Assembly: GCA_965215195.1 (NCBI GenBank) | Contig: CBDCDC010000002.1 | Location: 704,001 to 768,000, forward strand | Source of the DNA: Candidatus Latescibacterota bacterium | GTDB lineage: Bacteria; Latescibacterota; UBA2968; UBA8231 | Direction: 5' to 3' | DNA: 64,000 bases | Shown here: piece after piece, positions 2,740-13,256 of the stretch | Position numbering within the stretch: position 1 is the first letter of the stretch | How the letters are laid out: each line of letters opens with the position of its first letter | Position numbers and translations under genes: made by a program | Notes under the pieces: model-generated | What the model was told of the DNA's origin: nothing | Databases searched by the model: none | The model's input: only the letters and a program-made list of their open reading frames with translations

Positions 2740-3207
2740 TCAGTTGAGCGATTGCAAACAAGCCCTAATTGCCGCAAAATCCGGCAGGACCTTGGGATCG
2801 TCGGAAACCCAAGCGTAGCGGACGATCCCCTCCCCATCGACGACGAAGGCCGAGCGCTTGGCGATGCCTTTGAAGCCCAACAGATCTTCGTGCTGGGCAC
2901 CGTACGCGGCAGACACCTCCTTGTTGAAATCGCTGAGCAGCGGAATCGCAATGCCTTCCTTCTCGGCCCAAGCATTGAGGCTAAACGGACTATCAACGCT
3001 GATTCCCAAAGCCTGGGCATCGAGCTCCTCGTACGCGTTGATTCCGGCGGAAATCTCGCACAACTCCTGTGTACAGACGCTGGTGAAGGCCAGCGGCACG
3101 AAGAGCAAGACGACGCTTTTGCCGGCGAAATCCCCGAGGCTTACTTCCTCCATAGCCGCATTCTTGAGCGTGAACGCGGGTGCGTTGTCTCCTACTTGAA
3201 TCGCCAT
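2740..3207 (-). CDS. Peroxiredoxin (AhpC/TSA family, AhpE-like)
   Basis: VGDNAPAFTL, PLAFTSVCTQE (PxxxTxxC), LLSDFN, KRSAFVVD. Confidence 0.92.
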   Translation of the reverse strand: MAIQVGDNAPAFTLKNAAMEEVSLGDFAGKSVVLLFVPLAFTSVCTQELCEISAGINAYEELDAQALGISVDSPFSLNAWAEKEGIAIPLLSDFNKEVSAAYGAQHEDLLGFKGIAKRSAFVVDGEGIVRYAWVSDDPKVLPDFAAIRACLQSLN

Positions 3208-3210
3208 CTG

Positions 3211-3831
3211 CTAACTCCCCATCGCCTCGGCAAAGCGGCGACTGACTTCGGTCCAGTTGACGATGTCAGTCCAAGCTGCGATATAGTCGGGCCGGCGGTT
3301 TTGATAGTTGAGATAATAGGCGTGTTCCCAGACATCGATACCGAGGATGGGAACTCCGTCGCCGGTCATTAGAGGATTGTCCTGGTTGGCGGTGCTGAGG
3401 ATGGCGAGCTTGCCATCCTTGACTACGACCCAAGCCCAGCCGCTGCCAAACCGGGTGGTAGCAGCTTGCACGAAGGCTTCGCGGGCTTCGTCGGCGCTAC
3501 CGAATGCGGCTTCGGCCGCGGCGACGAGCTCGGCCGAAGGCTCGCCGCGCTCCCCTTCTGGGGCCATGATCTGCCAAAATAGGCTGTGGTTGGCATGACC
3601 GCCGCCGTGGTTGCGCACCGCCGTGCGGATGCTCTCGGGAACGGAGTCGAGGTCGCTGATGAGGTCTTCGACGCTTTTAGCGGCCAAGTCGTCGTGCCCT
3701 TCGAGAGCGGCGTTGAGGCTGGTCACATAAGTATTGTGGTGCTTGGTATGGTGAATCTCCATGGTGCGGGCGTCTATGACGGATTCCAGTGCGTCATAGG
3801 CATAGGGGAGATCGGGAAGGGAGTGAGCCAT
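3211..3831 (-). CDS. sodA: Superoxide dismutase (Mn-type signature)
   Basis: [33 protein letters not shown]. Confidence 0.95.
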
Positions 3832-3877
3832 GGTGCAATCCTTTCGGCTTGAGGTTAAAACGCAAGGCGAAAATGCG

Positions 3878-4255
3878 TTAGGAGGCCGTACTGGCCTGAT
3901 AGTTTTTCACTAGGGCCCGGGTTGCGTCAGCGGCTAGCTGGGCGGCGTGGCGCTTCATTGGCGGCAGCCCCCCTAGCACCTCCTCAATAGCTGCCGGCTC
4001 TAGCTGAGCTGCGTCCGCCAGTAGCAAATCTGCCAGCAACTCGGTGAGCACTGAGCCTGCCGCGACCGAAGGGGCACAACCAAAGGTCTTGCAGCTAGCG
4101 CGGACGATGCGACCGTTTTCGACGCGGGCAAAAAGCTGCATCGAATCGCCACAGGCCTGATTTTCAGCTTGCCCCGAGGCATTGGCATCGCCGATTTGCC
4201 CTGCGTTGCGGGGATGCCGATAGTGATCGAAAACCGCTGCGCTAAAGGAGGTCAT
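3878..4255 (-). CDS. IscU/NifU-N-like Fe-S scaffold protein (third Cys absent)
   Basis: [27 protein letters not shown]. Confidence 0.85.
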
Positions 4256-4379: not shown

Positions 4380-4685
4380 TTAGGCTTTGAGGCCGCCGGA
4401 ACCGCAATCCCGCCAGTAAGTCCGCACCATCTGCAAGATGTCCCAGAGTATGGTATCCTTCGCTACTTGGTCGATCAACGCGTGCAGCCTCGCGGCCTTC
4501 TCAGGCTCGATCAGCCCCAGTCCGCTCATCATCGTCAGGTGATGGATCAAGCCCGTTTGCAATAACGTGCGGTTCATGTCCGAGAGGGGGATGCTGCTTT
4601 TGTTGGCGAACTCCTCTTCGAGGCCGGCATAGAGTTCGGCCAAGCTGTGGGAAAGTGTGGTCTCAACTTTGTAAATTTTTTCCAT
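4380..4685 (-). CDS. Hypothetical protein, possible ribbon-helix-helix N-terminus
   Basis: Clean 101-aa ORF with GAGAGG RBS and an upstream TTGACA-16-TATATT (4718-4745). Confidence 0.7.
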   Translation of the reverse strand: MEKIYKVETTLSHSLAELYAGLEEEFANKSSIPLSDMNRTLLQTGLIHHLTMMSGLGLIEPEKAARLHALIDQVAKDTILWDILQMVRTYWRDCGSGGLKA

Positions 4686-4773
4686 GCGCCTCTCGCCTGC
4701 GTGGGAGCCTTGCGGTTAATATACCCGGCGCGTTCCCACTGTCAACAAGGCTCGGCCCGAAAGGCGCGGTTGG

Positions 4774-6195
4774 TCATTTGGCGGTGATTTGGTATTTGCG
4801 GAGCAAGTGTCGAAAGCGGTCGTAGGTCAAGCCCAATTGCCGTGCCGCGTCTTTCTGCCGCCCTCCCACTTGGGCGAGTGCGCCGTTGAGCAAGCCTCGC
4901 TCGACACGAGCGACTTGCTCGTCGAAACTGCCGCCCTCGGGAAGGGCAACGCCCCTGCCGCCGCGCACTTCTGGGGGCAAGTCTTCCGCGACCACTTCGT
5001 CCCCTTGTGCAACGCAGAGGGCGCGCTCGACAGCGAATTTGAGTTCGCGTACATTGCCCGGCCAAGCATAGGTCTCTAGCGTGGCCAAAACGCCTTCGGC
5101 GAACGGGCGTCGTTCAATCGCCGGCACTTCGTCGCATAGCTGCTGAGTAAAGTAAGCAACCAAGGGCCGGATGTCTTCGGGCCGCGCCCGCAAGGGCGGT
5201 AGCTGGAGCACGCTAAACCGCAGGCGGTCGTAGAGGTCGGCGCGGAATTTCTCGCTAGCTATTTCCCGCTCCAAATCCGCGTTGGTCGCCGCCACGACGC
5301 GAACGTCAACGTGGATCGTCTGCGTCCCACCCGTGCGTTCAAATTCTTGGTATTCTATAACGCGCAATACGTTTTTTTGGAAGTCCAGCGAAGTGTTGCC
5401 GATCTCGTCGAGAAAAAGCGTACCGCCATCGGCGGCTTCAAAGCGGCCGGGGCGCATTTGGGTCGCGCCCGTAAAGGCCCCTTTCTCGTGGCCGAACAGC
5501 TCGCTCTCGAGCAGAGTATCCGACAGCGCCGCGCAGTTCATCTTGACAAAGGCCCGCTCGCGGCGGTTGCTCCCGTAGTGCAAGGCGGCGGCGATCAGCT
5601 CCTTGCCCGTGCCCCGCTCGCCGCAGATCAGCACGGGCCGCGGTATGGAGGCGATCTGTTCAACTTGCTCTAGCAGGTTCTGAATCAGAGGACTGCGGCT
5701 GACAATCTGATAGCGCTGGCCTAGCTGGGTCCGGTAAAAGGTGTTGTCGCGACCCAAGGTCTCATTCTCGGCCTTGAGGCGGGCGTTTTCGCGCAATACC
5801 GCCAACATCCGCTCGACCTTTTCCATCTCCACTTCGAGCTTGTCCTCGACGTACAAGTCCTTCTCGATAAAATCCGCCGCCCCGGCTTGCACGGCTTCGA
5901 CCGCCAAGTCAACGCTTCCCTTGCCCGTGAGAATAATGACCGGCAGATCGGCCCAGTGCTTTTTGATCTCTTTCAGCACTTCGAGGCCGTTGGGCTGGCC
6001 AACTCCAAAGTCCAAATCCAGCACCACGAGTTCGACGTCCGTCGGCCTAGCGGCCAAATGACCGAGCAATCGTTGGCCATTAGAAAACGAGATGACCTCC
6101 TCCTTGCCCAAACTGCGCAGTTTCTCCGCCAACATCTCACGCAGTTCCCGTTGGTCATCGGCGATTAAGACAGCTTTCTTTTTTCTGCTCGCCAT
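4774..6195 (-). CDS. sigma54-dependent activator with PspF-like AAA+/HTH and an N-terminal receiver domain
   Basis: REC (IADD...LVVLD...LTG...KD), GERGTGKE, GAFTGA, LFLDE, RVIEY, FRADLYDRL, WPGNVREL, HTH LGLTYDRFRHLLRKY. Confidence 0.93.
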   Translation of the reverse strand: MASRKKKAVLIADDQRELREMLAEKLRSLGKEEVISFSNGQRLLGHLAARPTDVELVVLDLDFGVGQPNGLEVLKEIKKHWADLPVIILTGKGSVDLAVEAVQAGAADFIEKDLYVEDKLEVEMEKVERMLAVLRENARLKAENETLGRDNTFYRTQLGQRYQIVSRSPLIQNLLEQVEQIASIPRPVLICGERGTGKELIAAALHYGSNRRERAFVKMNCAALSDTLLESELFGHEKGAFTGATQMRPGRFEAADGGTLFLDEIGNTSLDFQKNVLRVIEYQEFERTGGTQTIHVDVRVVAATNADLEREIASEKFRADLYDRLRFSVLQLPPLRARPEDIRPLVAYFTQQLCDEVPAIERRPFAEGVLATLETYAWPGNVRELKFAVERALCVAQGDEVVAEDLPPEVRGGRGVALPEGGSFDEQVARVERGLLNGALAQVGGRQKDAARQLGLTYDRFRHLLRKYQITAK

Positions 6196-6222
6196 GCTCG
6201 TCCTCGTTCAATCACTGAAAGG

Positions 6223-7578
6223 CTAGGCCTCGCCGCCCGCGAAATTGAGCGGCAGATCGAGCCGAAAAACGGTTCCATGTCCCTTTCTGCTCTTGACGCG
6301 CAGCACACCCTGATGGGCCTGGACAATGCGGCGTGCAATGCTCAAGCCATAGCCATTGCCCCGCTCCCTAGTGGTAAATCCAGGCTCGAATATCAATTCC
6401 AAATGCTCTTCCTCAATGCCTGGCCCATCGTCCTCAACCTCAATAAAGATCAGCGATTGCTCCTCGTCGTAGCCAGCACCCAGCACCACTTGACCGCCGC
6501 GGCCTTTTTCGAGGATTTCTAAGGCGTTTAGGCAGAGGTTGGTAATGGCCTCGCGCAACATCCGCTCGTCGGCTTCCACGCGCGGCAAGCCCGCTTGGAC
6601 CCGCGTCTGGATCGCGGATTTCCAAGTTTGGCGGTCAAATCCGGCGACCACTCGGCGCACCAAGCGCCCGAGATCGGTCACCGCCGGGTGGATTTTATCT
6701 GTTTTCATTGCTTCCAAGAACCCCACCCACTCGTCGTACAGGGCCTCGTATTCGCTCCCTAAGCGATTCAATTCCCCCCGCTGCGCCTCTTCGGCCTTGC
6801 GCCCCAACCCCCGCAAGCGGCTGCCGATGATCCCCATCAAGTTCTTGATGCGATGTCCCTTTGTATAAAACCCCTCGTACACCTGCTCCTTTCCCAACTC
6901 GACCATTTCCAGCGACAGACGTGCGAGGACTTGTGGAGCACTTCGCTCAAATTCCTCGCAGATGTGCTGATATTCTTGCTCTAATTCAGGGGGTTTTACG
7001 TGGCGAAAAAACAAACGAGCCAAATTTGCGTATGGCTGACTGAGCTTGGGGTCAAGCTGGATGGCGACCTTGAATTCCCCCATCGCTCCTAACACCTGGC
7101 CACCTTGCAGCAAGAGCTGGCCCAAGCTGTTGTGGCCAACTGCGGAGAGGGGATTGAGCGCCAATCCTTGGCGGAACGCCCGAATGGCTTCTCCACGCCG
7201 CTGCGGATCTTCGTTGTACTGGCTGCCGAGAGCGAAAAAGACGCTATCGAGGGCTGGGTATTCGCGCCCTTCCTCGGCCGCACGCACGATGGCCTCAAAG
7301 TGCGCCAGCGACTGCTCGCGGAACCGGGCGTTCCGCCGCCCTTGGCGCATCGCGAGCAAACCGAGTTGGTAGTGGCTTTCTAGATGCCCACTCGCCGCGG
7401 CCGCTTCCAGCGCGGCGATCGCCGCTTGCTCATCCCCCAGTTCCAAGAGACAAAGCCCTTTGCGATGCTGCAACTCCAAGTCGTCGGGCACCTGCGCTAG
7501 GCCGCGCTCGCACCACTCCAGCACCTCAGCCCAACGCGCATCTTCACAAGCCTCCACAGCGCGGTCGCACCTGTTCAC
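6223..7578 (-). CDS. Soluble TPR-repeat sensor histidine kinase
   Basis: N-terminal TPRs, H-box TKGHRIKN, NLCLNA, DDGPGI, FEPGFTT, GNGYGL; no TM segment seen. Confidence 0.9.
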   Translation of the reverse strand: MNRCDRAVEACEDARWAEVLEWCERGLAQVPDDLELQHRKGLCLLELGDEQAAIAALEAAAASGHLESHYQLGLLAMRQGRRNARFREQSLAHFEAIVRAAEEGREYPALDSVFFALGSQYNEDPQRRGEAIRAFRQGLALNPLSAVGHNSLGQLLLQGGQVLGAMGEFKVAIQLDPKLSQPYANLARLFFRHVKPPELEQEYQHICEEFERSAPQVLARLSLEMVELGKEQVYEGFYTKGHRIKNLMGIIGSRLRGLGRKAEEAQRGELNRLGSEYEALYDEWVGFLEAMKTDKIHPAVTDLGRLVRRVVAGFDRQTWKSAIQTRVQAGLPRVEADERMLREAITNLCLNALEILEKGRGGQVVLGAGYDEEQSLIFIEVEDDGPGIEEEHLELIFEPGFTTRERGNGYGLSIARRIVQAHQGVLRVKSRKGHGTVFRLDLPLNFAGGEA

Positions 7579-7853
7579 GGCCTAGCCTTGCTCTCGTCGT
7601 TCTTGGCACTCCACGGCTCAGCTTCTGCCTCCTCCAGCCGATCAATCTTTTCGCTGAGAGCAATCATCACGTCCTGCACCTCAGTCAGCCGCTGCTCAAC
7701 TCGCTCTAGCCGCTCGACGATCCGATCCTCTTTCTCTTGGGCTTTTTTATCCCGTCGCTTGCGGCTCGAATAATGCTTGTTGCCCCAATTGACCAATCCA
7801 CTGCACAGGATGATGAGACAGACGCCAATGGCGACCAGCAAAAACCCATTCAT
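7575..7853 (-). CDS. Small single-TM coiled-coil protein (PspB-like architecture)
   Basis: N-terminal hydrophobic helix then IVERLERVEQRLTEVQDVMI; its stop overlaps the kinase start (GTGA). Confidence 0.7.
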   Translation of the reverse strand: MNGFLLVAIGVCLIILCSGLVNWGNKHYSSRKRRDKKAQEKEDRIVERLERVEQRLTEVQDVMIALSEKIDRLEEAEAEPWSAKNDESKARP

Positions 7854-7939
7854 TTGCTCCCTCCCTGTTTGAGCTATGCACGCGCCAGCCGTGAGCGCGT
7901 GCTATTGAATTGCGGCAATCCCGCCTCTGCCTGTTTGTA

Positions 7940-8458
7940 TCAGGCACTTTCAACGCCCCGGCTCCAGTGTTTCTCGTGCGCGAAAAGCACTTCTGGAAAG
8001 CGATAGACGATCAGGCCCGAATCGGTTATTTCGACCTCGACGAACCCCCCATCGGCCAAGCGCTTGAGAATTTCCGCGGATTCCTCAACCGTCAGCCCAG
8101 TATCGGCCGCCGTTTCGGTCACTGTCAGGCGACCACCGCGCTGGCGGGCCAAGCGCACGACGCGGTTTTGCTGCCGCCGATAGCGCAGCAGATGCGCGGC
8201 CGCATCGAGTTTTTTGGCCAATATCCAGAGCAAACTGCCGAAGATGACCTGCGTGACGCCAATGGCGAAGAGATCGAAATCGCGCCCCGGACCATCGGCA
8301 TCGGCACTGAGCATCTGAAATAGTCCGTAGAGCATAAATCCCAGCCCTATTGGCACGATCGGTACGGCCAGCACCTTGAGAAAAAGAGCGCCTAAACGCT
8401 TGCACCCGCTCTCGATCGCACTGCCTACCTTGAGGTTGGCTTCGTCGATGAATTTCAT
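7940..8458 (-). CDS. Two-TM membrane protein with C-terminal winged-helix-like domain
   Basis: Two hydrophobic helices then RGGRLTVTETAADTGLTVEESAEILKRLADGGFVEVEITDSGLIVYRFP. Confidence 0.75.
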   Translation of the reverse strand: MKFIDEANLKVGSAIESGCKRLGALFLKVLAVPIVPIGLGFMLYGLFQMLSADADGPGRDFDLFAIGVTQVIFGSLLWILAKKLDAAAHLLRYRRQQNRVVRLARQRGGRLTVTETAADTGLTVEESAEILKRLADGGFVEVEITDSGLIVYRFPEVLFAHEKHWSRGVESA

Positions 8459-8470
8459 AGTTCACCTGCT

Positions 8471-8497
8471 AAAAAGCCCGCAGTATACACTGCGGGC
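8471..8497 (-). terminator. Intrinsic terminator directly after pspA
   Basis: Minus strand GCCCGCAGT-GTAT-ACTGCGGGC-TTTTT. Confidence 0.8.
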
Positions 8498-8504
8498 CAT
8501 AGGG

Positions 8505-9179
8505 TTACTTGTCTTTCTTCATCTTGCTCTTTAGAGCCTTCAACTCGTCGTCAACGCTGTGGTCGACTTCGATTTGGCGGATTTCTTTCTCAACGTCTTC
8601 CATCTCGCCCGAAATCTCCACATGCGCAGCAGCCTCCGCCTCGCTCTCTTCGACTTTCTGCTCAAAGCGTTCAAAGCTGGAAAAGGCATCCTGACCCAAC
8701 CCGGAAATGCTCTGGGCCAGACGCTTGCGGGCTTGGGCGGCTTGGTGGCGGGCGACCAACGTGCCCTGCCGGGTCCGCGCTTCTTCGAGCTTGGTCTTTA
8801 GCTCGCGTAGCTGCTCGCGCAATTGCTCGGCCGTCTGCCGACTCTCCTCCACAGCCGGAGCCAAGTCCTCGGCGGCTTTGGCAAACACCGCCTTGCGCTC
8901 CAGCGCACGTCGCGCCAGTGCATCCTCGCCCGACTCCACCGCCCGTTCGGCCTTCTGCTGCCATTCGGCGACCTGGCTTTGCTTATCGTTAAACTGGCGC
9001 TCAAGCCGCTTGTGGTTGGCCACCGCCGTCCCCACTGAAGCAGTCGCCTTGCCGACCGCCTCTTCCATGTCCCGCACCATCTGGCGGATCATCTTGTCCG
9101 GCTCTTCGGCCCGGTCAAGCATCTCGTTGATATTGGACTTGAGGATATCGCTTATCCTCGCTAAGGTTCCCTTAGCCAT
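8505..9179 (-). CDS. pspA: PspA/IM30 family protein
   Basis: LARISDILKSNINEMLDRAEEPDKMIRQMVRDME, AERAVESGEDALARRALERK, FERFEQKV, VDDELKALK. Confidence 0.95.
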   Translation of the reverse strand: MAKGTLARISDILKSNINEMLDRAEEPDKMIRQMVRDMEEAVGKATASVGTAVANHKRLERQFNDKQSQVAEWQQKAERAVESGEDALARRALERKAVFAKAAEDLAPAVEESRQTAEQLREQLRELKTKLEEARTRQGTLVARHQAAQARKRLAQSISGLGQDAFSSFERFEQKVEESEAEAAAHVEISGEMEDVEKEIRQIEVDHSVDDELKALKSKMKKDK

Positions 9180-9228
9180 TGTGCACCTTCCTTGATTGAG
9201 TGGAACTTATCATGCGCTATTCCTAACT

Positions 9229-9244
9229 TGCAAGGGCCGTGCCA
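9229..9244 (-). promoter_or_regulatory. sigma54 (-24/-12) promoter of pspA
   Basis: Minus strand TGGCACGGCCCTTGCA matches TGGCAC-N5-TTGCW, 50 bp upstream of the pspA ATG. Confidence 0.9.
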
Positions 9245-9321
9245 AAAGTGCCAGTACGCCCATAATTTATTACAGTCCATTGTGTTATAGACAAAACATA
9301 GATCGAATTATTACTTGTTAA

Positions 9322-9357
9322 TGGCCAGATTCGCCACTTAGATGGCGTCATTGGCCA
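9322..9357. promoter_or_regulatory. Two tandem TGGC-N7-GCCA palindromes (candidate upstream activator sites)
   Basis: TGGCCAGATTCGCCA (9322-9336) and TGGCGTCATTGGCCA (9343-9357), centres 21 bp apart, separated from the promoter by an AT-rich tract. Confidence 0.7.
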
Positions 9358-9409
9358 TTTTCACTCCGTTGATCACTTATTATAACAAATTTTCAAAAAG
9401 GATATTGCA

Positions 9410-10852
9410 ATGGCCAATCCATTGGTCTTGAGTGGCTTAGTTGTCTATCTCGCGGTGATGCTGGGCATTGGCCTATATGCTGGCCGCCGCGTCCGCAACT
9501 CAACCGACTTCATCGTCGCCGGCCAACGCCTGCCCCTGTTGCTCTGCACCGCAACCCTCGCTGCGACGTGGTTTGGCGGTGGAATCTGCATTGGCGCTGC
9601 AAGTGCTGCATACAAGGGCGGCATCCTCGCGGTCATTGCCGATCCTTTTGGCGCGGCTTTGTGCCTGTTCATCGCCGGCCTCTTTTACGTCCGGCTGATG
9701 CGGCGCATGGGCTTGATGACGATTGCATCCTTTTTTAGCCGCCGCTTCGGCCCGCGGGCGGGCTTGCTAGCCAGTCTTTGTACCATTCCCGCCTATGTTG
9801 GCTGGACCGGCTCGCTCTTGTTGGCCTTTGGGCGGATCCTGCAGAGCTTGACCGGCATAGAACCCGCTGTCGGCATCTGCGCAGCCGCAGCCATCGTGCT
9901 GATCTACACTTGGGCCGGCGGCATGTGGGCCGTCACGCTGACCGACTTCGTCCAAGTGACCGTCCTCGTGCTCGGGCTGTTTATTTTGACGCCGATTCTC
10001 CTCGGCGACATGGGCGGCTGGAAGGCCCTCGTCGCCCAAATCCCGGCCTCCCGCTTCGATTTCTATCCCCGAGGTGGCACGGCCAGTTGGTTGGCCTATG
10101 CGCGCGATTGGCTGGTCATCGGCCTTGGCAACCTAGCAGGCCAAGACCTAATCCAGCGCAGTCTTTCCAGCCGCGACGAAAAGGTGGCTTACCGCAGCGC
10201 CTACCTTGCTGGACTCCTTTATATAACGGTCGGGCTATTGCCCGTTTTTCTCGGCATGGCGGGTGCGGTCGTCTTCCCGGATTTGGCCGATCCCGATCTA
10301 GTTATGATGGCCCTAGCACTAGAGTACCTTCCGGATCTGGCCTTGATCCTCTTTATGGGTGCCCTCGTCTCGGCCCTCCTGTCCAGCGCCGACAGTGCTC
10401 TCCTCGCTCCAGCGAGCGTCATTGGCTGGGATCTCTTGCGTTACTTCAAACCTGCTGCCGAAGAGCGGTCGTCGCTGCGCGTGACGCGCTTGTCCGTCCT
10501 CTTCTTGGGCGCGGTATCGCTCCTGCTAGCTCTGCGGACCGCTTCGGTTTACGACTTGATGGTCAACTCTTGGTCCGTGCTCCTCGCCTCGCTATTCGTC
10601 CCGCTAACCGCTGGCTTGTGGTGGCCCAAGAGCAACGGCCCTGGGGCCCTAGCCTCCATAGGGGTCGGTCTGTGCGCTTGGCAGGTTCTGAGGATGCTCT
10701 CCGCGGATTTGCCAGCCGACCTTTTGGCCGTGCCCTTTTCCGCCCTCGCCTTAGTAATCGTCAGCTTACTAACCCAAAAAAAGGCTCCGCCGCAGCCCTT
10801 ACTCAATGCCGAGGGGCGCCCCCTAGCCTATAAAAACCGCTTGGGCATTTAA
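9410..10852 (+). CDS. Sodium:solute symporter family protein
   Basis: DFIVAGQ, ATWFGGG, YTWAGGMWAVTLTDFVQ, QDLIQR, SSADS; many TM helices. Confidence 0.93.
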   Translation: MANPLVLSGLVVYLAVMLGIGLYAGRRVRNSTDFIVAGQRLPLLLCTATLAATWFGGGICIGAASAAYKGGILAVIADPFGAALCLFIAGLFYVRLMRRMGLMTIASFFSRRFGPRAGLLASLCTIPAYVGWTGSLLLAFGRILQSLTGIEPAVGICAAAAIVLIYTWAGGMWAVTLTDFVQVTVLVLGLFILTPILLGDMGGWKALVAQIPASRFDFYPRGGTASWLAYARDWLVIGLGNLAGQDLIQRSLSSRDEKVAYRSAYLAGLLYITVGLLPVFLGMAGAVVFPDLADPDLVMMALALEYLPDLALILFMGALVSALLSSADSALLAPASVIGWDLLRYFKPAAEERSSLRVTRLSVLFLGAVSLLLALRTASVYDLMVNSWSVLLASLFVPLTAGLWWPKSNGPGALASIGVGLCAWQVLRMLSADLPADLLAVPFSALALVIVSLLTQKKAPPQPLLNAEGRPLAYKNRLGI

Positions 10853-10926
10853 TCCAAACGCGCTTGACAGACAGAAGCGCACGCTTAACTTGTTGACAAC
10901 CTACCACGACCCCCTTAAAGAGGAAC

Positions 10927-12342
10927 TTGACCATGAAGATGTACATTGCCGGAGAATGGGTTGACAAAGCCGAGACCATGGACGTCGTCAACCCCTATGA
11001 TGGCTCGGTCATCGACACCGTCCCGAGAGGCGACGCCGCAGACATTGAGCGCGCCATTGACTCGGCCGAGCGCGGTGCCAAGGTCATGGCCGCAATGAGT
11101 GCCTATGATCGCTACCAGATCATCCATCGAGCGGCCGATCTAATGCTAGAGCGGCTCGACGACCTAGGGCGCACGATTACCCTCGAAGAGGGCAAAGTGC
11201 TCGCCGAGGGCATAGGCGAGGCGTCCCGTGCCCAAGAGACCATCGTCCTCTCTGCCGAGGAAGCCAAGCGCCTGACTGGCGAAACGCTCGACCTGAGCGG
11301 AGCTTCTAACGGGGCGGGCAAATTCGGCTTTACGCTGCGGGTCCCCTGTGGCGTGGTGGCCGCTATTACGCCCTTTAACTTCCCGCTCAACCTCGTCTGC
11401 CACAAAGTGGGCCCTGCTCTGGCCGCCGGCAACGCAATTGTCGTCAAGCCTGCCAGCGACACCCCGCTTTCGGCACTCAAACTGACCGAGATTTTTCTCG
11501 ACGCGGGCCTGCCGGAGGAAGCCATTCAATGCGTCACGGGTTCGGGCGGCGTCATTGGCGATGCGATCAGTTCCAATCCCAAGGTCCGCAAAATCAGCTT
11601 CACGGGCAGCCGCGATGTCGGCGAACACATCTGTAAGGTCGCTGGCCTGAAGAAAGTGACCATGGAGCTAGGTTCCAACTCCCCGCTGATCGTCATGCCG
11701 GACGCCGATCTCGAAAAGGTCGCCGCCGCCACCGCCAATACCGGCTTTGCCAACGCTGGCCAAGTCTGCATCTCGACTCAGCGGGTATTCGCCAGCAGCG
11801 AGGTGTACGGGGATTTTATAGACGCCCTGAAACCCGAGGTCGAATCCCTGACGACCGGCAATCCCCTCGACGACAGCGTCAAGATGGGGCCTATGATCCG
11901 CGTCCAAGACGCCGAGCGCGTTGAGTCTTGGGTGCAGGAAGCCGTTGGGGCTGGAGCCAGCATCGTCACCGGCGGGACCCGCGAGGGCACGATGTACGCC
12001 CCGACCATCCTAGCCGATGTAGCACCGGAGATGAAAGTCTCCTGCGACGAGATTTTTGGCCCAGCACTCGGCATCAGCCGGATCGACGATATCGACCAAG
12101 CCATCGCCATGGCCAACGATACCAACTATGGTCTCAGCGCCGCAATTTTCACCGAGAATCTCAACTGGGCCCTTCAGTTTGCCCAGCAGGTGCAATCGGG
12201 CAACATTCACATCAACTGGGGCACTCAGTGGCGCGCCGATCTGATGCCCTATGGCGGCCTCAAGGAAAGCGGCATGGGCAAGGAGGGGCCCCGATACGCG
12301 GTCGAGGAAATGACCGAAACTAAGCTGGTCGTCATTCATTAA
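10927..12342 (+). CDS. Aldehyde dehydrogenase
   Basis: ITPFNFP, FTGS, ELGSNSP, GQVCIS, EIFGP, PYGGLKESG. Confidence 0.95.
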   Translation: MTMKMYIAGEWVDKAETMDVVNPYDGSVIDTVPRGDAADIERAIDSAERGAKVMAAMSAYDRYQIIHRAADLMLERLDDLGRTITLEEGKVLAEGIGEASRAQETIVLSAEEAKRLTGETLDLSGASNGAGKFGFTLRVPCGVVAAITPFNFPLNLVCHKVGPALAAGNAIVVKPASDTPLSALKLTEIFLDAGLPEEAIQCVTGSGGVIGDAISSNPKVRKISFTGSRDVGEHICKVAGLKKVTMELGSNSPLIVMPDADLEKVAAATANTGFANAGQVCISTQRVFASSEVYGDFIDALKPEVESLTTGNPLDDSVKMGPMIRVQDAERVESWVQEAVGAGASIVTGGTREGTMYAPTILADVAPEMKVSCDEIFGPALGISRIDDIDQAIAMANDTNYGLSAAIFTENLNWALQFAQQVQSGNIHINWGTQWRADLMPYGGLKESGMGKEGPRYAVEEMTETKLVVIH

Positions 12343-12354
12343 AAACCTCTGGCC

Positions 12355-12398
12355 AAAAAGGGGGGGACGCACCGGCTGGGGCCGGGCGTCCCCCTTTT
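12355..12398. terminator. Bidirectional intrinsic terminator between convergent ALDH and dat
   Basis: AAAAA-GGGGGGGACGC...GCGTCCCCCC-TTTT. Confidence 0.8.
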
Positions 12399-13256
12399 CT
12401 ATTTTGTATCCCTATCCAGCGACTCCAGAAACGCGGCGCGGATCTGCCGCGTAATCGAACCCGGTGTACCATCGCCGATAACGGCGGCATCGATTTTTAC
12501 CACCGGCATCGCCTCAAGCGTAGTACCGGCGATAAAAACCTCGTCGGCTTCCTTAAATTGGTCCAGTGTGCAAAACTCTTCGTCGATGAGTATGCCGAGC
12601 TTGCAAGCCAAACCGAGGAGAATTCCTCTGGTGATACTCGGCAGGATGTGGGGACCAATAGGCGCGGTACACAATCGCCCGGCCCGTACGCAGAAAGCAC
12701 TGGTCGAAGCTCCTTCGGTGACCCGGCCTTCCGCATCGACCAGCAGCGCCTCAAAGGCCCCTGCTTGCGCCGCCGACTGTTTGGCCAAAATGTTGGGCAG
12801 TAAGGCGATGCTCTTGATATCGCAGCACTTCCAGCGCAAGTCTTTGGTGCTAATGACCTCGACGCCGCGTGTATAGGCGTCCTGCGGCAGGCGACGCAAC
12901 TCCTTAAACGTCATTACGACGGTGGGCGCGACCGGGACAGCGGGAAACTCGTGCCGCCTTGGGGCGACCCCGCGCGTAACTTGGATATAGACTAAAGTCT
13001 CGCCAAAATCGCTCCGCTCGATGCCTTCCATCAGCTTGGCCCTAAGGCCATACTTGCGGATATCCAACGGCAAGTGCAGTGCTTCTAGGTTGCCCTGGAG
13101 GCGCACCAAGTGCGGCTCTAAGGCATAGGGGCACCCGCCGTAGGTGGCAACGACCTCATAGACCCCATCGGCGAACTGATAGCCCCGGTCCTCAATCGAC
13201 ACCATGGCTTGGGCCAGTGGACAGAAGCGGCCGTTGACATAGGCGACTTCGGGCAT
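12399..13256 (-). CDS. dat: D-amino-acid transaminase / class IV PLP aminotransferase
   Basis: EDRGYQFADGVYEV, YIQVTRG, DIKSIALL, EGAST, ILPSITR, ADEVF. Confidence 0.88.
   Translation of the reverse strand: MPEVAYVNGRFCPLAQAMVSIEDRGYQFADGVYEVVATYGGCPYALEPHLVRLQGNLEALHLPLDIRKYGLRAKLMEGIERSDFGETLVYIQVTRGVAPRRHEFPAVPVAPTVVMTFKELRRLPQDAYTRGVEVISTKDLRWKCCDIKSIALLPNILAKQSAAQAGAFEALLVDAEGRVTEGASTSAFCVRAGRLCTAPIGPHILPSITRGILLGLACKLGILIDEEFCTLDQFKEADEVFIAGTTLEAMPVVKIDAAVIGDGTPGSITRQIRAAFLESLDRDTK

Follow-up and report, generated by a model that had tools for sequence, protein, structure and literature searches.

A pspA operon of Latescibacterota that encodes a soluble TPR histidine kinase and a receiver-bearing relative of PspF

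Organization of the operon

The window analyzed here is a stretch of 64,000 nucleotides from Candidatus Latescibacterota bacterium, an uncultured marine organism (GenBank assembly GCA_965215195.1, contig CBDCDC010000002.1, positions 704,001 to 768,000 of the forward strand), and all positions given below without a contig name are counted from its first letter. The system under study is a group of five tightly packed minus-strand genes with the appearance of a phage shock protein (Psp) operon. In the order of transcription, these are pspA (8505–9179, 224 aa), a gene for a 172-aa protein with two hydrophobic segments (P172, 7940–8458), a gene for a 92-aa protein with an N-terminal hydrophobic segment (P92, 7575–7853), a soluble histidine kinase in which tetratricopeptide repeats (TPR) precede DHp and CA domains (6223–7578, 451 aa), and a sigma54 activator of receiver–AAA+–helix-turn-helix (REC-AAA+-HTH) architecture (4774–6195, 473 aa). 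The successive intergenic gaps are 46, 86, −4 and 27 bp. A sequence-only reading had described five co-directional genes under a consensus sigma54 promoter, and both are confirmed, with the open reading frames (ORFs) at the positions it gave. The absence of pspC, which it had also remarked, extends to the whole genome, as PspC (PF04024) has no match anywhere in the 6.13 Mb, which are 95% complete; the assembly is rated 8.5% contaminated.

The product of pspA matches the PspA/IM30 family (PF04012) over residues 6–220 with an E-value of 9.2e-47 and 159.9 bits (cut-off 33.9), which places it in the family, and scores 159.9 bits with the NCBI equivalog model TIGR02977, under the cut-off of 242.95. 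It is presumed to be the effector of the system. Its nearest solved relatives are the rods and rings of Vipp1/PspA, which are homo-oligomers, together with a fragment of Escherichia coli PspA. Two more PspA paralogues are encoded in the genome (C2:642270–642980 and C2:4075536–4076204), with no sigma54 site near either of them. One adjoins a 130-aa ORF and a large membrane protein resembling spermidine synthase, as read from the translation. A gene for a 123-aa membrane protein comes after the other one, which has a TAG stop inside its family match.

Pieces of all five genes of the operon were covered by Logan contigs of RNA libraries, with single contigs spanning P92–P172–pspA and the kinase–activator junction. 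These contigs are 90–95% alike to the window and therefore derive from relatives. They were not taken as evidence of expression, because they cannot show transcription, strand or start.

Promoter, candidate enhancer and hairpin

Pattern matching located a sigma54 promoter on the minus strand at 9229–9244, in which the −24 element TGGCAC and the −12 element TTGCA are separated by five nucleotides. It is a full match to the consensus (GG-N10-GC, TGGCAC-N5-TTGCW) and the sole occurrence of TGGCAC-N5-TTGCA in the window; at least one match was obtained in 5 of 100 shuffled sequences. The genome contains rpoN. A −24/−12 element is found 65–112 bp ahead of the pspA ATG in the window and in all 44 related loci that hold pspA, with the strict pattern in 34 of these 45 and with a relaxed pattern in the other 11.

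Further upstream, an inverted repeat forms a 40-bp palindrome on the minus strand (9320–9359) with the dyad CGCCA-N6-TGGCG, whose start is 104 nt upstream of the −24 GG. This is a candidate enhancer, or upstream activating sequence. Dyads of this kind occur 40–200 bp upstream of the −24 element in 37 of the 45 loci, compared with a mean of 0.06 and a maximum of 1 in 200 mononucleotide shuffles, and their half-sites read TGGCG in two families of the phylum and TGGTG in a third. Genome-wide, 63 sigma54-like sites and 168 dyads were counted, and a dyad lies 40–250 bp upstream of a site only once, at the pspA promoter. Since this is the only place in the genome where promoter and dyad are combined, the regulon is predicted to be this operon alone.

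Directly 3' of the pspA stop codon, a GC-rich 10-bp hairpin followed by a U run was recognized by its fold energy (8471–8498, minus strand; −23.6 kcal/mol, z −3.7, with no equally stable structure in 200 shuffles). It is possibly a partial terminator that lowers read-through in this strain and sets the ratio of PspA to the regulators. A role as a conserved attenuator was rejected, because only some 7 of the 24 same-genus loci retain both hairpin and T run, and the other families lack them. The hairpin is missing where the next gene abuts the pspA stop.

Relation of the activator to PspF

Pfam identifies four regions in the activator, namely REC at residues 9–115 (E 1.9e-19), Sigma54_activat (PF00158) at 164–327 (E 8.4e-65), the AAA lid at 336–413 and HTH_8 (PF02954) at 428–459 (E 4.6e-5), and the GAFTGA motif is present and conserved. 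The added REC domain noticed in the sequence-only reading is an intact receiver, with D13, D14, D60, T90 and K112 invariant in 46 of 46 sequences, and Asp60 is predicted to be the phosphorylated residue. The PspF-type motifs listed in that reading (GERGTGKE, LHY, RVIEY, FRADLYDRLRF and LGLTYDRFR) all occur in the translation.

The best NCBIfam model for the activator was PspF (TIGR02974), with 360.9 bits over residues 166–401, i.e., the AAA+ part only, ahead of the AtoC and NtrC models, which score the receiver too. It is also the top match to the PspF model among the approximately 17 sigma54 activators of its own genome (332 bits, compared with 287 for the next one). The best full-length solved match was an "NtrC family" regulator (4l4u, 258 bits, residues 9–457). 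Among the other activators of the genome, one of 344 aa without an N-terminal domain (C2:1350490–1351182, L166) has a PspF-like architecture. It was rejected as a PspF, being placed outside the PspF clade in the trees described next and paired with the database representative P0250 (support 100).

An exhaustive search with the AAA+ domain returned 75,801 representatives at E < 1e-30, with a flat score plateau beyond the orthologues. E. coli PspF, with 56% identity to the AAA+ domain of the activator, is level with the best of this plateau. For the trees, 30 of 150 representatives were left out because they had at least two AAA+ domains, and of the 187 sequences pooled, 3 with short matches were also left out. 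The activator and E. coli PspF were recovered in one clade with a support of 99 both by FastTree (155 rows) and by a quick IQ-TREE run. For a more careful tree, 84 rows were hand-picked after the first one (the 37-row clade, 12 E. coli activators, 16 paralogues from the own genome and 20 others, minus one overlap), with DhaR omitted as a long branch. In the resulting IQ-TREE analysis (LG+C20+F+G4), the 37-row clade with E. coli PspF obtained an ultrafast bootstrap of 100, not fully settled at a correlation of 0.951, and a Shimodaira–Hasegawa-like approximate likelihood ratio of 99. All of the 11 other E. coli activators in the set and the 16 own paralogues fall outside the clade.

The clade is divided into two halves. 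The first one holds 11 domain-less rows including E. coli PspF (100/99); of its 10 database representatives, 8 score above the cut-off for PspF and 2 are fragments. The second half has 26 rows (80/85) and contains eight Latescibacterota activators (100/97), together with 18 other rows, of which 8 have a clear REC domain (E of 1e-8 or lower), 7 are extended at the N-terminus by about 120–155 residues with no such match and 3 are domain-less. The PspF-like nature that had been attributed to the AAA+ domain is thus borne out, since a phylogeny comparing PspF with NtrC and AtoC groups it with PspF. Judged by AAA+ sequence, the activator appears to be a sister of PspF rather than a member.

The soluble TPR histidine kinase

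The TPR matches of the kinase in Pfam are within residues 14–192, and HATPase_c (PF02518) covers 337–444 (E 1.3e-23). No hydrophobic segment was detected, the top 19-residue Kyte–Doolittle mean being 1.07. The structural model, with a mean predicted local distance difference test (pLDDT) score of 82.4, has 11 TPR-type helices at 3–193, DHp helices at 196–261 and 264–291 and a CA domain at 299–443. The modeled helical hairpin 196–291 carries the H-box-like motif Y-T-x-G-H-x-x-K-N, which is invariant in 46 of 46 sequences together with His242, the predicted phosphorylated residue. The catalytic half is most like AtoS and ZraS. The description of the kinase as soluble and TPR-bearing was therefore correct, and since it has neither a membrane nor a ligand-binding domain, its input must be a protein contact.

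The accessory membrane proteins P172 and P92

P172 has hydrophobic segments at residues 21–52 and 61–82 and no match in Pfam or NCBIfam. Its model (pLDDT 77.6) consists of helices at 3–51 and 59–106 followed by a winged helix at 110–165, which suggests a membrane protein whose two long helices precede a winged-helix domain in the cytoplasm. Assignment to a specific known fold was rejected, as the best Foldseek E-value was 3e-3 and VIA-align gave a tie between ArsR/SmtB, Z-alpha and ESCRT-II winged helices (Z 8–8.8); with such tied generic matches the domain can only be called a winged helix. The family has 240 detectable relatives, all without a name, and the Atlas gave only unnamed clusters. 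P172 comes after pspA in 45 of 45 loci.

The hydrophobic segment of P92 covers residues 1–25. The family alignment shows a membrane helix at the N-terminus and a cytoplasmic helix that is better conserved than any other part of the family, and R55 is invariant. In relatives, P92-type genes are found between P172 and the kinase in tandem groups of 1–4 copies coding for 65–214 aa (loci L012–L036 and L122–L141), with two copies in most same-genus genomes and one in the genome of the window. Identity with PspB was considered and rejected. The copy in the window reaches 21.7 bits on TIGR02976 (cut-off 51.7), the family matches TIGR02976 in 1 of 41 sequences and the Pfam PspB family in 0 of 41, and hhalign against E. 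coli PspB gave a probability of 11%. The likeness of P92 to PspB is one of architecture only. By analogy with PspBC and LiaI, P172 and P92 may be membrane partners or anchors of PspA.

Conservation across Latescibacterota

A single-copy orthologue of the kinase is present in 100 of the 168 genomes of the phylum. By family, it was found in 50 of 75, 21 of 22 and 28 of 31 genomes in three families of one class and in none of 39 genomes in eleven other families. The order pspA–P172–P92–kinase–activator is kept in 25 of 25 same-genus loci, one of which lies on a short contig that ends before pspA. From the three families, 20 further loci on contigs that are complete or long were picked; all of them have pspA, P172, the kinase and the activator in this order, and 19 have P92-type genes. 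The synteny search suggested earlier thus recovers the five-gene order in 45 of 45 loci, with pspA cut off in one and P92 undetected in one.

In two of the families, an insert of 1.2–4 kb separates the P92 genes from the kinase (L128–L141; e.g., L129 3170–8001 and L137 5173–8075). In the three loci examined by translation, with no family search, the insert codes for an extracytoplasmic function (ECF)-type sigma factor, an NfeD-like membrane protein and a flotillin; a STAS-like ORF was also seen in the translation of the L129 insert.

A second lineage with the kinase, the activator and PspA

The sister half of the tree contains a representative, P0147, whose named cluster members are Kofleriaceae metagenome-assembled genomes; some of the IMG members of the same cluster (473–480 aa) are auto-named "psp operon transcriptional activator PspF". 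With P0147 as the query, a metagenome scan gave 80 loci, and the 34 of at least 7 kb were examined. An activator 46–51% identical to that of the window is present in all 34, followed on the same strand by a pspA 26–33% identical to the one described here, with a gap of at most 52 bp in 28 loci and of 0.3–2.9 kb in 6. The kinase gene lies ahead of the activator in 32, and the other two loci end at the contig edge. From the last TPRs via the H-box to the catalytic domain, this kinase aligns with that of the window at 30–36% identity. P172 and P92 had no tblastn match at E 1e-4 in these loci.

The kinase–activator–pspA trio is thus retained although the gene order differs between the distant lineages, and this argues strongly for a joint function of the three. 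Since the second lineage keeps the trio while P172 and P92 are unmatched, the conserved core is the trio.

As a separate observation, the region downstream of pspA in three of these loci (L189, at 10172–12668, L201 and L249) contains a conserved ORF of about 130 aa and, as judged by translation, genes for an ECF-type sigma factor and for a long protein resembling an anti-sigma factor. An ECF sigma factor thus accompanies the module in both lineages.

Model of the kinase–PspA complex

The TPR part of the kinase (residues 1–236) was modeled with PspA using a 25-row alignment for each protein. The interaction prediction score from aligned errors (ipSAE) was 0.64, 0.64 and 0.63, compared with 0.00 for the best of three controls; among solved complexes, 58 of 80 attain the mark applied to this score, and among mismatched pairs, 2 of 110 do so, a calibration that is only rough here since author-made alignments were used. 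The runs share at least 90% of their contacts, with a pLDDT of the partner of at least 73. Since the solved relatives of PspA are homo-oligomers and the E. coli fragment, it is unlikely that the model merely reproduces a solved complex.

In the predicted interface, the TPR face formed by kinase residues 132–176 and 205–210, the most conserved one, contacts helices alpha1 (41–62) and alpha2 (108–123) of PspA. Positions conserved at 90% or more make up 13 of the 26 contact residues of the kinase, compared with 17% of residues 1–236, and 20 of the 26 contact residues of PspA, compared with 49% of the whole protein. The model supports binding of PspA by the TPR domain and is in line with the earlier suggestion that the kinase senses PspA through its TPRs.

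Proposed mechanism and alternatives

Taken together, the locus is likely to be a sigma54-dependent, phage-shock-type membrane-stress operon that is switched by its own two-component system. According to the proposed mechanism, the soluble kinase would autophosphorylate at His242 and hand the phosphate to Asp60 of the activator. Phosphorylation would release the PspF-like AAA+ ring for assembly on the dyad enhancer about 100 bp upstream, from where it would open the −24/−12 promoter. Transcription of pspA, with read-through into the genes of the two membrane proteins, the kinase and the activator, would then result in positive autoregulation, which we infer from the order of the genes. As to the input, the conserved TPR face of the kinase would hold the alpha1/alpha2 hairpin of PspA, as in the complex model. 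The partner switch would thereby be placed one step upstream of its position in E. coli, with free PspA sitting on the kinase and damping it. Recruitment of PspA to a damaged membrane, possibly by P172 and the P92 proteins, would release the kinase. PspA thus probably remains a regulatory input, acting on the kinase.

Several observations weigh against this interpretation. On the side of the activator, the 360.9 bits obtained with TIGR02974 are below the cut-off of 443.55, the protein is outside the true PspF clade, and the Tyr equivalent to a PspA-docking residue of E. coli PspF is retained in 43 of 46 orthologues, so that PspA may also contact the activator directly. Pfam finds no HisKA domain in the kinase, and the complex model, with its rough calibration, is silent on the sign of the PspA effect, i.e., whether PspA inhibits or activates. 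Regarding the promoter, dyads are only imperfect in 8 of the 45 loci, and a basal promoter for the kinase and activator genes was not identified. One of the Logan contigs extends to 9367, upstream of the promoter, and may therefore be DNA or read-through. In the second lineage, a search with one pattern from 2.5 kb upstream of the kinase to pspA gave no sigma54 consensus, apart from scattered weak matches.

A more specific version of the mechanism, which we regard as tentative and rather doubtful, combines two statements: that the TPR kinase reads the assembly state of PspA, an ESCRT-III-type protein, releasing it when PspA polymerizes on damaged membrane and so coupling the partner switch to a phosphorelay, and that the receiver form is the older one, from which enterobacterial PspF was derived by loss of the receiver and gain of the L52/W56 patch, coming to be held by PspA directly.

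The loop by which PspA contacts E. coli PspF has a different sequence in this activator. In the alignment to solved E. coli PspF, LHYGSNRR of the activator stands opposite LHYLSSRW, with Arg at the position of the Trp, so the sequence-only reading was right about the missing Trp. In the 84-row alignment, the motif L-S-x-R-W is shared by all 11 rows of the PspF clade and found in none of the 26 rows of the sister clade and none of the 47 others. Being limited to the PspF clade, the patch appears as a derived mark of domain-less PspF, and its absence here need not be a loss. The claim that inhibition by PspA had been "replaced" is consequently not upheld, since the absence is no evidence of loss and the polarity may be the reverse. 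As the outgroups lack the Trp and mostly have N-terminal domains, the receiver-bearing form may be older than domain-less PspF, in a tree that is unrooted inside the clade.

A different explanation would be that the two-component system answers another signal, perhaps by binding of the TPRs to the helix of P92, to the winged helix of P172 or to a further protein or peptide of the cytoplasm, with PspA as a mere output. TPR domains take many kinds of partner, the conserved cytoplasmic helix of P92 and its copy number of 1–4 would suit a sensor or adaptor, and P172 is invariably present in the Latescibacterota loci. Nevertheless, the second lineage holds kinase, activator and pspA with no tblastn match to P172 or P92, and in the complex model, which passes while its controls stay at 0.00, the two proteins meet at their most conserved residues. 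This explanation was accordingly judged unlikely.

Dual control is a further option, in which PspA would still bind and inhibit the AAA+ domain of the activator as in E. coli, with the receiver as a second layer. According to the account in PMC3791423, the docking site for PspA on E. coli PspF is made up of Y51, L52 and W56, with Y51 as the main residue, and the substitutions W56A and L52C free PspF from PspA. The 56% identity of the AAA+ domain to E. coli PspF and the Tyr kept at the Y51 position in 43 of 46 Latescibacterota activators would speak for such an arrangement. However, two of the three patch residues are gone, the L52 equivalent being Gly in 45 of 46 and the W56 equivalent Arg, Lys, Ala or Ser in 46 of 46, and other members of the sister clade lack the Tyr too. 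Given that changes at these same two positions let E. coli PspF escape, dual control is considered improbable. That the kinase and the activator control other genes, with pspA a neighbor by chance and another of the approximately 17 activators serving its promoter, is very improbable: the genome does have 63 sigma54-like sites and binding of the activator to the dyad is presumed, but the linkage outlives the gene-order change between two distant lineages, the dyad and the activator clade vary together (TGGCG in two families and TGGTG in the third), and the combination of promoter and dyad is unique in the genome.

Comparison with known systems

Three regulatory designs are usually described for the Psp response: PspF held by PspA, LiaFSR and ClgR. 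The proposed two-component control of a PspF-type activator would be a fourth one, linking the PspF and LiaFSR types, in which a phosphorelay governs a PspF-type sigma54 activator and the kinase is the predicted target of PspA. The arrangement is no isolated case, being conserved in three families of Latescibacterota, with the core trio found again in the Kofleriaceae-named lineage.

The E. coli pspF/pspABCDE system is alike in having a sigma54 promoter with an upstream enhancer before pspA and small membrane proteins after it, and PspF is the closest E. coli relative of the AAA+ domain of the activator (56% identity, 100/99 clade). In both cases PspA is an effector as well as a regulatory ligand, although the latter is a model-based prediction here. 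The differences concern the regulators. E. coli PspF lacks an N-terminal domain and is subject to inhibition in trans via Y51/L52/W56, as described in PMC3791423, whereas the present activator has a receiver and lacks L52 and W56. A dedicated soluble kinase is added, PspC is absent and no PspB can be demonstrated. In addition, the regulators are encoded inside the operon here and divergently transcribed in E. coli.

In Bacillus subtilis liaIH-liaGFSR, as presented in PMC11237479, the operon of a PspA-family effector (LiaH) likewise encodes its own two-component system and small membrane proteins, resulting in autoregulation. LiaFSR differs in that LiaS is a membrane kinase with a HAMP domain, LiaR is a REC and HTH protein independent of sigma54, and LiaF is an inhibitor; here, a soluble TPR kinase and a sigma54 AAA+ activator are found instead. 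Activators of the NtrC1/DctD type with their kinases, such as AtoSC and ZraSR in E. coli, share the REC-AAA+-HTH_8 architecture with GAFTGA. In the tree, however, the AAA+ domain of the activator is apart from E. coli NtrC, AtoC, ZraR and GlrR, and compared with AtoSC and ZraSR, the kinase has a TPR input instead of membrane and PAS or periplasmic domains and the target is a psp operon.

The surveys of Ravi et al. 2024 (PMC11237479) and Popp et al. 2022 (PMC9239133) report pspA beside flotillin/band-7 proteins, two-component systems and NtrC-like regulators with ACT or PAS domains, and the flotillin–NfeD insertion of the other Latescibacterota families fits this neighborhood theme. By their own statement, PspF and two-component proteins were not systematically analyzed. 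No mention of a receiver-PspF or a TPR kinase was found in either survey, and the supplementary tables and web application of the former may list such neighborhoods. In PMC3162934, PspF is grouped with the activators that have no signal domain. Neither a PspF relative with a receiver nor a TPR kinase associated with pspA was found described in what these and further sources cover on the subject (PMC3041696, PMC3162934, PMC4641369, PMC3791423 and PMC7910581). As far as the literature found goes, this is therefore a real and previously undescribed variant of the Psp system.

The variant is of concern to research on envelope stress and on sigma54 activators. It offers a concrete hypothesis for the origin of PspF and for the sensing of membrane damage by a kinase with neither membrane nor ligand domain, and two unnamed families, P172 and P92, would be added to the list of PspA partners.

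Neighboring genes

Immediately downstream of the activator, a 101-aa ORF with no family match is encoded at 4380–4685 on the minus strand. It has a near-consensus sigma70-like site of its own (TTGACA-16-TATATT, 4718–4745; 11 of 12 positions). Of the same-genus loci, 23 of 25 retain the ORF, as do 3 of the 20 more distant ones. Just downstream of this neighborhood, at 2740–4255 on the minus strand, ORFs resembling a peroxiredoxin, an Fe/Mn superoxide dismutase and an IscU/NifU-like protein were recognized by eye. On the other side, a sodium:solute symporter (9410–10852, plus strand; PF00474, E 6e-40) is divergent from the pspA promoter region. This arrangement recurs in 23 of 25 loci of the genus and, at a greater distance within the family, in 5 of 6 loci.

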